A program made the position numbers and the translations under genes. Shown in pieces: positions 48,442 to 60,915 of a stretch of 64,000 nucleotides of DNA (position 1 is the stretch's first letter; each line of letters opens with the position of its first letter). The stretch lies in assembly GCA_951406725.2 (NCBI GenBank), contig OX597835.1, positions 35,712,001-35,776,000 on the forward strand, written 5' to 3'. The stretch comes from Octopus vulgaris (taxonomy: Eukaryota). A model generated the notes under the pieces. It did not search any database and was not told the DNA's origin. It saw only the letters and a list, made by a program, of their open reading frames with translations.

Positions 48442-48456
48442 ATCGCCTTGGTATCC

Positions 48457-48493
48457 TGTTTCTGAAGAAGAGCTTTGCTCGAAACGTAAAACA
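48457..48493 (+). ncRNA. Minimal Penelope-type hammerhead
   Basis: TGTTT-CTGAAGA-a-GAGC-ttt-GCTC-GAAAC-GTA-AAACA. Confidence 0.8.
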
Positions 48494-49025
48494 ACCATTC
48501 ATTCTTCCTTTCTCTGATCGTCGTATAAATAATTTGCATATACTAAGTACACGCGTAGTTGCGTTTCTTCTTGTCTTTTTATCCGCTTTTTTTTAATTAC
48601 TATTTTCCACACGCTCACAAGAAATGCTTTCTACTATCGCGAACTCTTTGTACCATCGAATTACATTACGTTATTCATTCGGAGTGCGCCATTTCTTCAT
48701 CATGATTATATATATTTATACATATGCATATATATATATAATGTATATGTATGCATGTGTATGTGTGTATATACACTCAATATATATATATATATATAAT
48801 TAATCAATATAGGGTGGCAAAAAAAATTTTGTAGAATTCTTTTGCCACCAGCGGCCAAGTGGGAAAAAATTAAATAGTCATAGACCATTTTTAAGTTCAA
48901 CATCAACAATCAAGGAACGGCCATAATAGGCCATTCACCCACTAGAAATAACAGCCAAAGCTTCAACCGCAAATAAAAATTAATTCCGTAAACCAGGAGA
49001 AAATTTAAAAAACATTTACCTTGTA

Positions 49026-49132
49026 ATTTCTTATACGATATACCGTTTCATCTGCTGATTAATGGTAAACTAACCTGATTAAATTAAATCAAGCCAATCT
49101 TCCAAAGGCCCTCAGATTCTTCAGTAAGAAAT
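49026..49132 (-). ncRNA. Type I hammerhead, unit 1
   Basis: rc: ATTTCTTA-CTGAAGA-ATCTG-(58 nt)-CAGAT-GAAAC-GGTATATC-GTA-TAAGAAAT. Confidence 0.9.
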
Positions 49133-49518
49133 AGCCCAAGTCGGAACAGATATTTTCACGAGGCAAATCCGACCTTGCCAAGGTTATATCTGACCTAAAA
49201 TTTTCAAATCGTCGCACTCGCGCCAAAATTTATCGGCAGCAAATAAATATAAGCCGTCGATTCCATTACGGAATTAACCAGAAAATTCATAATTAATCAA
49301 TATAGGGTGGCAAAAAAAATTTTGTAGAATTCTTTTGCCACCAGCGGCCAAGTGGGAAAAAATTAAATAGTCATAGACCATTTTTAAGTTCAACATCAAC
49401 AATCAAGGAACGGCCATAATAGGCCATTCACCCACTAGAAATAACAGCCAAAGCTTCAACCGCAAATAAAAATTAATTCCGTAAACCAGGAGAAAATTTA
49501 AAAAACATTTACCTTGTA

Positions 49519-49625
49519 ATTTCTTATACGATATACCGTTTCATCTGCTGATTAATGGTAAACTAACCTGATTAAATTAAATCAAGCCAATCTTCCAAAG
49601 GCCCTCAGATTCTTCAGTAAGAAAT
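49519..49625 (-). ncRNA. Type I hammerhead, unit 2
   Basis: Same sequence as unit 1. Confidence 0.9.
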
Positions 49626-50012
49626 AGCCCAAGTCGGAACAGATATTTTCACGAGGCAAATCCGACCTTGCCAAGGTTATATCTGACCTAAAATTTTCAA
49701 ATCGTCGCACTCGCGCCAAAATTTATCGGCAGCAAATAAATATAAGCCGTCGATTCCATTACGGAATTAACCAGAAAATTCATAATTAATCAATATAGGG
49801 TGGCAAAAAAAATTTTGTAGAATTCTTTTGCCACCAGCGGCCTAGTGGGAAAAAATTAAATAGTCATAGACCATTTTTAAGTTCAACATCAACAATCAAG
49901 GAACGGCCATAATAGGCCATTCACCCACTAGAAATAACAGCTAAAGCTTCAACCGCAAATAAAAATTAATTCCGTAAACCAGGAGAAAATTAAAAAAAAC
50001 ATTTACCTTGTA

Positions 50013-50119
50013 ATTTCTTATACGATATACCGTTTCATCTGCTGATTAATGGTAAACTAACCTGATTAAATTAAATCAAGCCAATCTTCCAAAGGCCCTC
50101 AGATTCTTCAGTAAGAAAT
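50013..50119 (-). ncRNA. Type I hammerhead, unit 3
   Basis: Same sequence as unit 1. Confidence 0.9.
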
Positions 50120-50505
50120 AGCCCAAGTCGGAACAGATATTTTCACGAGGCAAATCCGACCTTGCCAAGGTTATATCTGACCTAAAATTTTCAAATCGTC
50201 GCACTCGCGCCAAAATTTATCGGTAGCAAATAAATATAAGCCGTCGATTCCATTACGGAATTAACCAGAAAATTCATAATTAATCAATATAGGGTGGCAA
50301 AAAAAATTTTGTAGAATTCTTTTGCCACCAGCGGCCTAGTGGGAAAAAATTAAATAGTCATAGACCATTTTTAAGTTCAACATCAACAATCAAGGAACGG
50401 CCATAATAGGCCATTCACCCACTAGAAATAACAGCCAAAGCTTCAACCGCAAATAAAAATTAATTCCGTAAACCAGGAGAAAATTTAAAAAACATTTACC
50501 TTGTA

Positions 50506-50612
50506 ATTTCTTATACGATATACCGTTTCATCTGCTGATTAATGGTAAACTAACCTGATTAAATTAAATCAAGCCAATCTTCCAAAGGCCCTCAGATTCT
50601 TCAGTAAGAAAT
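50506..50612 (-). ncRNA. Type I hammerhead, unit 4
   Basis: Same sequence as unit 1. Confidence 0.9.
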
Positions 50613-50739
50613 AGCCCAAGTCGGAACAGATATTTTCACGAGGCAAATCCGCGAGTGCGACGATTTGAAAATTTTAGGTCAGATATAACCTTGGCAAGGT
50701 CGGATTTGCCTCGTGAAAATATCTGTTCCGACTTGGGCT

Positions 50740-50846
50740 ATTTCTTACTGAAGAATCTGAGGGCCTTTGGAAGATTGGCTTGATTTAATTTAATCAGGTT
50801 AGTTTACCATTAATCAGCAGATGAAACGGTATATCGTATAAGAAAT
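50740..50846 (+). ncRNA. Type I hammerhead, inverted copy
   Basis: Stem I 50740-47/50839-46, CTGAAGA 50748-54, stem II 50755-59/50818-22, GAAAC 50823-27, GTA 50836-38. Confidence 0.9.
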
Positions 50847-50971
50847 TACAAGGTAAATGTTTTTTAAATTTTCTCCTGGTTTACGGAATTAATTTTTATT
50901 TGCGGTTGAAGCTTTGGCTGTTATTTCTAGTGGGTGAATGGCCTATTATAGCCGTTCCTTGATTGTTGATG

Positions 50972-51002
<31 letters not shown>

Positions 51003-60721: not shown

Positions 60722-60915
60722 GTGAACAAGCAAGAAATAACAACAACGCGAGGACGTGGAATAAGTAGTGTGTTATTGGACGCTCAGGAAAGGAAAGAAA
60801 AGAAAGAGGACTTCACGTTTCGAGCGGAGCTCTTCGTCAGAAATATAGAAAAAGTCCAAAGAAGGGAAGACGGAGAAAGAAAAAAATCGCCAACGATGCA
60901 CACGCGGTCACATAT
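60722..60915 (-). mobile_element. Short HHR element (family of 48140-48600); hammerhead at 60811-60845
   Basis: rc: TTT-CTGACGA-a-GAGC-tcc-GCTC-GAAAC-GTG; flanking sequence similar to the 48.1-48.6 kb copy. Confidence 0.7.

Follow-up and report, generated by a model that had tools for sequence, protein, structure and literature searches.

A young hammerhead-bearing tandem repeat of Octopus vulgaris and its paired insertion ends in (TA)n tracts

In a stretch of 64,000 nucleotides of the Octopus vulgaris genome (assembly GCA_951406725.2, contig OX597835.1, positions 35,712,001 to 35,776,000 of the forward strand; hereafter the window), a short array of near-identical units lies between two (TA)n tracts, which raises the question of what kind of element it represents and by which route it was copied into this place. 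The first-pass annotation, made from the letters of the window, had read it as a recently active retrozyme family, with a 493-nt circular RNA reverse transcribed for several laps by the enzyme of a Penelope-like element (PLE). This reading is partly borne out by the comparison of the array with its relatives elsewhere in the genome, and one part of it had to be corrected.

The array and its hammerheads

The tandem part of the array occupies 48796-50651, where TRF returned a period of 493 and 3.8 copies at 99%; the earlier estimate of about 3.75 head-to-tail units (3.76 by the present count), with start spacings of 493, 493 and 494, followed by an inverted partial copy, is thus reproduced. Arm A, on the minus strand, comprises unit 1 (493 bp, 48797-49289), unit 2 (493 bp, 49290-49782), unit 3 (494 bp, 49783-50276) and partial unit 4 (50277-50651, unit positions 1-375), the last forming the 5'-truncated inner end of the arm. 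Arm B, on the plus strand, is an inverted partial unit running from position 426 to position 100 (50650-50976, one substitution), and the two arms meet at an inversion junction with a 2-nt overlap, or microhomology (50650-50651). The units had been described as nearly identical and free of ORFs, and so they are: unit 2 equals unit 1 exactly, including one variant that units 3 and 4 lack, five alignment columns separate unit 3 from unit 1, partial unit 4 carries one substitution, and the longest stop-free frame in the array amounts to 53 codons. The GC content of the repeat is 35%.

Both outer ends adjoin (TA)n and neither coincides with the ribozyme cleavage site, as had been noted. The left tract (48780-48798) provides eight TA dinucleotides in the adjacent 16 nt, with a boundary to the element that is ambiguous by a few bases; the right tract extends over 50976-51002. 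The long 'tailed' arm ends on the left at site A (48797-48803, minus strand, unit positions 1-7), and the short arm ends on the right at site B (50970-50976, plus strand), for which the mode in the family is unit position 106 (= 50970), the window copy ending 6 nt beyond it at position 100. Both sites are putative start sites of reverse transcription. A 13-bp hairpin is predicted about 10-16 nt 5' of site A in the RNA sense (48813-48849, minus strand), and an 8-bp hairpin 5' of site B (50936-50957, plus strand), with one substitution within the stem in the window copy.

When both strands of the whole window were scanned with a descriptor, exactly five type I hammerheads were found, four of them on the minus strand, one per unit (hammerhead 1 at 49026-49132, hammerhead 2 at 49519-49625, hammerhead 3 at 50013-50119, hammerhead 4 at 50506-50612), and a fifth on the plus strand in the inverted copy of arm B (50740-50846), in the number and orientation first proposed. 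Cleavage is predicted after 49034, 49527, 50021, 50514 and 50838, respectively, the first of these agreeing with the earlier placement between 49034 and 49033. Hammerhead 1 spans 107 nt and has a CUGAAGA core; the stems comprise 8 bp (I), 5 bp (II) and 3 bp with an additional G-U pair (III), a long hairpin of roughly 65 nt extending stem II. Stem III is nearly palindromic and co-folds with a second copy as a 12-bp duplex, which matches the dimer-type design described for metazoan hammerheads in the text available of PMC4209133. In predicted energy, the active fold is 1.8 kcal/mol less favourable than the MFE fold, and the monomer is predicted to be highly self-paired (z -4.1). As a chance control, the descriptor matched 1 of 5000 dinucleotide shuffles of the unit at looser thresholds. 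The database check that the first-pass annotation had suggested came out negative: Rfam gave no hammerhead at gathering score, nor among the 34 matches at E<=10, and the sub-threshold matches were only of miRNA type, on the inversion hairpin and on (TA)n; the long extension of stem II is probably the reason. A different family accounts for two minimal hammerhead motifs with short stem II, which stand alone at 48454-48500 (plus strand) and near 60840 (minus strand); these are probably remnants of PLE pseudo-LTRs.

A dispersed family with two fixed insertion ends

The repeat belongs to a young, dispersed family of ORF-less hammerhead tandem repeats. A genome search gave 190 matches, at up to 100% identity, from the best 40 of 1003 candidates, and a 29-nt core pattern had 805 exact matches genome-wide, with none for the reversed control. 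The first 100 core matches fell into 37 loci, which by extrapolation corresponds to about 300 loci, a lower bound for the family. Inspection covered 74 loci, namely the 40 top-scoring ones and the 37 from the core list, with three in both. Divergence among 193 near-full units amounts to 0.33% within loci and 1.8% between loci, in line with the recent activity that had been claimed, and the subfamily of the window was found in 10 of the 74 loci. Arrays range from 1 to about 12 units with locus-specific variants, and single arms reach 9-10 units. Contigs of three sequencing runs guessed to be RNA covered all 29 bins, with variants of other subfamilies, ends and circles being invisible in contigs; the repeat may also be present in sequencing runs under two other species labels, where shares of 0.46-0.70 were obtained.

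A sister family of about 485 nt, roughly 70% identical, was represented by 2626 candidates at first look; it is older (loci L120-L149, e.g. L129:1499-1984) and has the core CCGAUGA (U4C), fixed in 10 aligned copies. Comparison of the two families shows that the hammerhead is conserved as a structure through compensatory change in all three helices: 7 of the 15 hammerhead pairs are changed on both sides, distributed over stem I (4/8), stem II (2/3) and stem III (1/4), while slid-register controls of the 46-pair structure gave 0-3 such pairs; two families amount to one lineage split and not to a series of events. Within the family, none of the six fixed core bases varies across 69-70 locus majorities, and the free core position 7 takes all four bases (61/4/4/1); core invariance by itself is not significant, since only 59 of 409 sites vary. 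As to the hairpins near the insertion ends, the one near site B is paired in 100% of cells in both families, with no two-sided change, and the one near site A, with only 75% of cells paired in the aligned register of the two families, is weakly supported. Both retrozyme families also have in common a splice-donor-like motif about 14 nt 3' of the cleavage site (window 49015-49024, minus strand).

The first-pass annotation had expected dispersed copies with circularly permuted ends. The dispersal could be confirmed; the ends, however, are not freely permuted, the outer ones being restricted to two sites. A typical insertion consists of two arms back to back, whose hammerhead-sense 3' ends point outward into (TA)n, and the outer ends are confined to site A (positions 1-7) and to site B (about 106), some 105 nt apart. 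The 74 loci comprise 57 of class A/B, one A/A, no B/B, 14 with one of the fixed ends only and two with neither, so that 57 of the 58 loci in which both ends are classable have one of each; in five of the 57, where arms are very short or deleted, the class was revised by eye. Automatic classing alone gave 52 A/B, one A/A and one B/B (binomial test against 0.5, p=8e-14), and 37 loci unselected on their ends gave 30 A/B, no A/A, no B/B, six with one end and one with neither. Had each arm chosen its site independently, at most half of the loci would be A/B. In the sister family, 14 of 16 two-arm loci among 30 are A/B, the other two having their second end elsewhere (by eye); as the query began at site A, the second end alone is informative there. 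The sole A/A locus (L048:1908-4168) has a short B-ended fragment 509 bp upstream and may therefore combine two events.

All ends assigned to A or B by automatic classing are followed by 5-8 TA dinucleotides in the next 16 nt, from which we infer that the (TA)n tract was probably present before insertion. The inner ends, in contrast to the outer ones, are variable and scattered over the whole unit; 37 of 56 simple arm junctions overlap by at least 1 nt (in BLAST terms), most often by 2. Junctions of loci L031, L050, L053 and L170 contain additional short inverted or repeated pieces, which suggests template switches while the arms were being joined. An excess of arm ends at the cleavage site was considered (12 of 129 within 10 nt, compared with 5.5 expected under uniformity, p=0.009) and rejected, for the ends pile up broadly over 175-275, with adjacent bins almost as full, and the sample was partly core-chosen. 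On the idea that both arms may start in the same unit, shared subset variants gave inconsistent offsets.

Penelope-like elements, template and rival explanations

The genome contains three young autonomous PLE families with intact RT plus GIY-YIG ORFs of 781, 775 and 727 aa, the first with RVT_1 and GIY-YIG domains in Pfam. The 781-aa and 775-aa families are presumably Neptune-like and the 727-aa family presumably Poseidon-like, an assignment made from motifs and not from a tree. Each family ends in (TA)n at one short and one tailed site, with a distance between the two of about 40, 30 and 71 nt in the 781-, 775- and 727-aa families, respectively. All 17 two-arm copies with both ends resolvable are tailed/short; they derive from 14 of 20 fetched loci and from 3 of the 19 loci L100-L118, the other six fetched loci having no readable end pair, and internal and terminal tails of the 775-aa family being read by eye. 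Canonical PLEs have one ORF; in L100-L118 (e.g. L103:1768-5471), the 781-aa family has a separate upstream ORF of 479 aa which overlaps the RT ORF. This family also has a hammerhead-like hairpin with degenerate core just before the short end, and a donor-like motif after its first short exon, which the splice-donor-like motif of the retrozyme unit resembles; contigs of the three putative-RNA runs contain no splice joint at that motif. The 775- and 727-aa families are very young, with many intact ORFs (L184-L263), and the 727-aa family, whose tail measures 71 nt, has a canonical minimal hammerhead 37 nt before the short end.

Thus the mobilisation by PLEs that the first-pass annotation had assumed is matched by one end rule, seen in 57 of 58 classable retrozyme loci and in 17 of 17 resolvable autonomous copies. 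On this pattern we infer, with high confidence, that PLE mobilisation with paired priming at two sites, A and B, generates the insertions; that grade is given to the mobilisation and the priming, and the circle is judged separately below. In the mechanism envisaged, the minus strand of an array would be transcribed and the RNA cleaved to 493-nt monomers, perhaps through dimerisation at the palindrome of stem III or with the help of a protein. A Penelope-like RT/GIY-YIG enzyme acting in trans would cut a (TA)n tract, and each target strand would serve as a primer on the RNA, at site A in one case and at site B in the other, as might be expected if a PLE dimer engages one RNA region at both sites. 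Both cDNAs would then run 5'-ward through several units and be joined head-to-head by microhomology or filler. The enzyme may recognise the RNA by its structure, as a modelled hairpin lies 10-16 nt upstream of each site.

Several findings count against this explanation, the one A/A locus among them. The distance between sites A and B, about 105 nt, exceeds the roughly 30, 40 and 71 nt of the PLEs of this genome, and an autonomous partner with a homologous terminal repeat was not found among the three families searched. A homologous repeat was sought by blastn and by an nhmmer profile in 110 PLE-bearing loci; the profile of both retrozyme families had no match among 50 GIY-YIG loci, and another 60 PLE loci yielded only one adjacent retrozyme insertion and one weak match in an unrelated context (E 1e-4), each of these partner searches scoring only the best 40-150 candidates. 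At three loci (L069:2130-2534, L037:1-2574 and L123:1-1499), retrozyme copies sit in (TA)n directly beside the ends of autonomous PLEs, which is consistent with a shared target.

As regards the RNA template, the most likely form, at about even odds, would be a circle made by ligation of a monomer and copied over several laps, local duplication or conversion having followed. As the main alternative, an uncleaved linear transcript of several units from an existing array could have served the PLE, in which case the hammerhead would be idle or act later and neither circle nor laps would be needed; this we regard as possible, if rather doubtful. In 10 of 33 long arrays, that of the window included, there are variants that go beyond what a monomer circle by itself could produce: of 123 minor variants within loci, 13 are found in more than one unit, some of them with a period of 2-3 or crossing both arms, and units 1-2 of the window are among the cases. 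The variant common to these two units implies a multimeric template, later duplication or conversion, or an assembly duplication. A linear multimer would further agree with the lack of a sharp peak of arm ends at the cleavage site, and unprocessed RNA was the dominant substrate of PAc in vitro in what is available of PMC11167929. Against it, the other 23 of the 33 long arrays contain no shared-subset variant, single arms attain the lengths of 9-10 units given above, and 138 non-majority variants are fixed in every unit of each arm, compared with 3 confined to one arm, with seven private variants fixed in six loci; such locus-private and subfamily changes point to frequent re-founding from one unit. 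In a single case, a non-CpG variant found only in unit 3 of the window is fixed in 10 of 10 covering units of the near-identical locus L031. The 243 passes through the cleavage site include one indel. The data therefore allow multi-lap copying on one circle, and an uncleaved linear multimer fits them as well.

A different route would have a PLE insert one terminal-repeat-like unit, from which arrays grow locally by unequal crossing-over, a path to satellite birth discussed in the accessible part of 10.64898/2026.07.22.740005. Variants with two- and three-unit periodicity in L031, L050, L060 and L153, as well as the identity of units 1-2 of the window, speak for it, but both arms are usually multi-unit and of one shared haplotype, with a divergence of 0.39% between arms, about that within arms (0.30%), the arrays are very young, and in 47 of 52 A arms the copy already extends beyond the first cleavage site. 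Arrays may gain units by local growth, which leaves their ends unexplained; as their origin it is unlikely. The fact that most copies are large inverted repeats sitting in TA would suit a DNA transposon of foldback or MITE type whose inverted arms contain tandem repeats, a reading that is already largely refuted and that we hold to be extremely improbable: the ends differ (A and B) in 57 of 58 loci and so share no terminal inverted repeat, the inversion point varies over the whole unit, one fixed end is retained and the other side lost in 14 of 74 copies, and autonomous retroelements show the identical end pattern. Very unlikely, too, is the view that the unit represents no more than the pseudo-LTR of some longer autonomous PLE, or that the array is an assembly artefact. 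Hammerheads and paired ends are indeed features of PLE pseudo-LTRs, and identical units 1 and 2 could be made by an assembler; yet none of the 74 loci runs from the unit into a PLE ORF, none holds an RT plus GIY-YIG ORF between pseudo-LTRs, homology to the three PLE families was not found, and the spread of array sizes and locus-specific variants over many loci, together with the deviating unit 3, argues against an artefact. With 74 of about 300 loci and three PLE families covered, a rare parent PLE or an ancestral pseudo-LTR origin may exist. Paired two-site priming by a PLE is the reading retained here.

Place among known elements

The element is, as judged from its sequence, a non-LTR retrozyme that behaves as a non-autonomous PLE passenger, and as such belongs to a class already known. 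Every property of a non-LTR retrozyme that can be tested in sequence was found except the typical unit size. Where a hammerhead in at least two consecutive units is expected, the array has four consecutive ones plus the inverted copy, and the repeat has no coding capacity, no LTR features and low GC. Metazoan non-LTR retrozymes have units of about 170-400 nt, though the Discussion of PMC7229834 allows 150 to >1000 nt; the unit of 493 nt exceeds the typical range, which is not a strict criterion, and the excess is mostly the extension of stem II. In common with the non-LTR retrozymes described in the available portions of PMC7229834 and 10.64898/2026.07.22.740005, the octopus element is an ORF-less tandem repeat with a type I hammerhead per unit, of low GC, with dispersed oligomeric copies, PLEs in the same genome and a self-paired monomer. 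It departs from these descriptions by its fixed paired ends, its inversion and its (TA)n targets; inverted insertions are not mentioned in the text at hand of PMC7229834, and none that is relevant appears in that of 10.64898/2026.07.22.740005. For metazoan retrozymes cleavage and circles have been shown (PMC7229834; 10.64898/2026.07.22.740005, as far as accessible), whereas for the octopus repeat the cleavage is predicted and the circle conjectural; 8 of 9 assayed Xenopus retrozyme dimers did not cleave (same preprint, same extent). A pLTR homolog exists in 21 of 57 Xenopus families according to that source, in contrast to the octopus repeat, for which none was found.

The anatomy of the insertions is, on the other hand, that of PLEs. 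PLE inserts are described as inverted, with a tail at one end and a bias to (TA)n, in the parts available of PMC8557442, and an inverted insert with a tail likewise in those of PMC3846280. The corresponding text of PMC11167929 reports that the RT starts at two neighbouring sites and that both strands are cut and extended in vitro; PAc insertion did not require cleavage there. The octopus repeat shares with EN+ PLEs (PMC3846280, PMC8557442 and PMC11167929, to the same extent) the head-to-head inverted arm, the tail at one end, 5' truncation, AT-rich or (TA)n targets, hammerheads just upstream of the ends and two start sites. Differences concern the lack of an RT or endonuclease ORF, the unit being the whole element, and the tail, of about 105 nt in comparison with 30-40 nt in the published PLEs, a range that the distance between sites A and B exceeds as well. 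In the twin priming of L1, two primers from one target site also give rise to an inverted arm; the second primer of L1 acts at variable internal sites, unlike in the octopus repeat, whose two starts are fixed and whose arms have whole units of sequence in common. Non-autonomous PLEs of Chlamys, such as MRC1, generally share 3' sequence with an autonomous family, and the MRC1 clade is without canonical hammerheads (PMC8557442, in part), while the octopus repeat has a canonical-core hammerhead and no detected partner homology. In full-text searches of an open library, neither the family nor any insertion footprint of retrozymes was found described.

Shared hammerheads, co-occurrence and pLTR kinship have led to the proposal that animal retrozymes are mobilised by PLEs (10.64898/2026.07.22.740005; PMC7229834, both as available). 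The near-exceptionless A/B rule, common to the autonomous PLEs of this genome, provides direct genomic support for this proposal, and the observation that a tail is often found at one end is sharpened into a coupled two-site model. Tandem and inverted PLE inserts are regarded as an open mechanistic question by Craig 2021 (PMC8557442, in its accessible part). It is tentatively suggested here that a structure-guided PLE dimer, itself unrelated in sequence to the repeat, captures a 493-nt circle made by the ribozyme at the two hairpin-adjacent sites 105 nt apart, primes both ends of a (TA)n break there and copies the circle with both polymerases for several laps; if true, one step would account for retrozyme arrays, for the inverted inserts of PLEs and for the one-sided tail. 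A non-coding RNA of 493 nt, on which two start sites are mapped and for which there are three intact candidate enzymes, may serve as a small substrate for the mechanism of PLE insertion.
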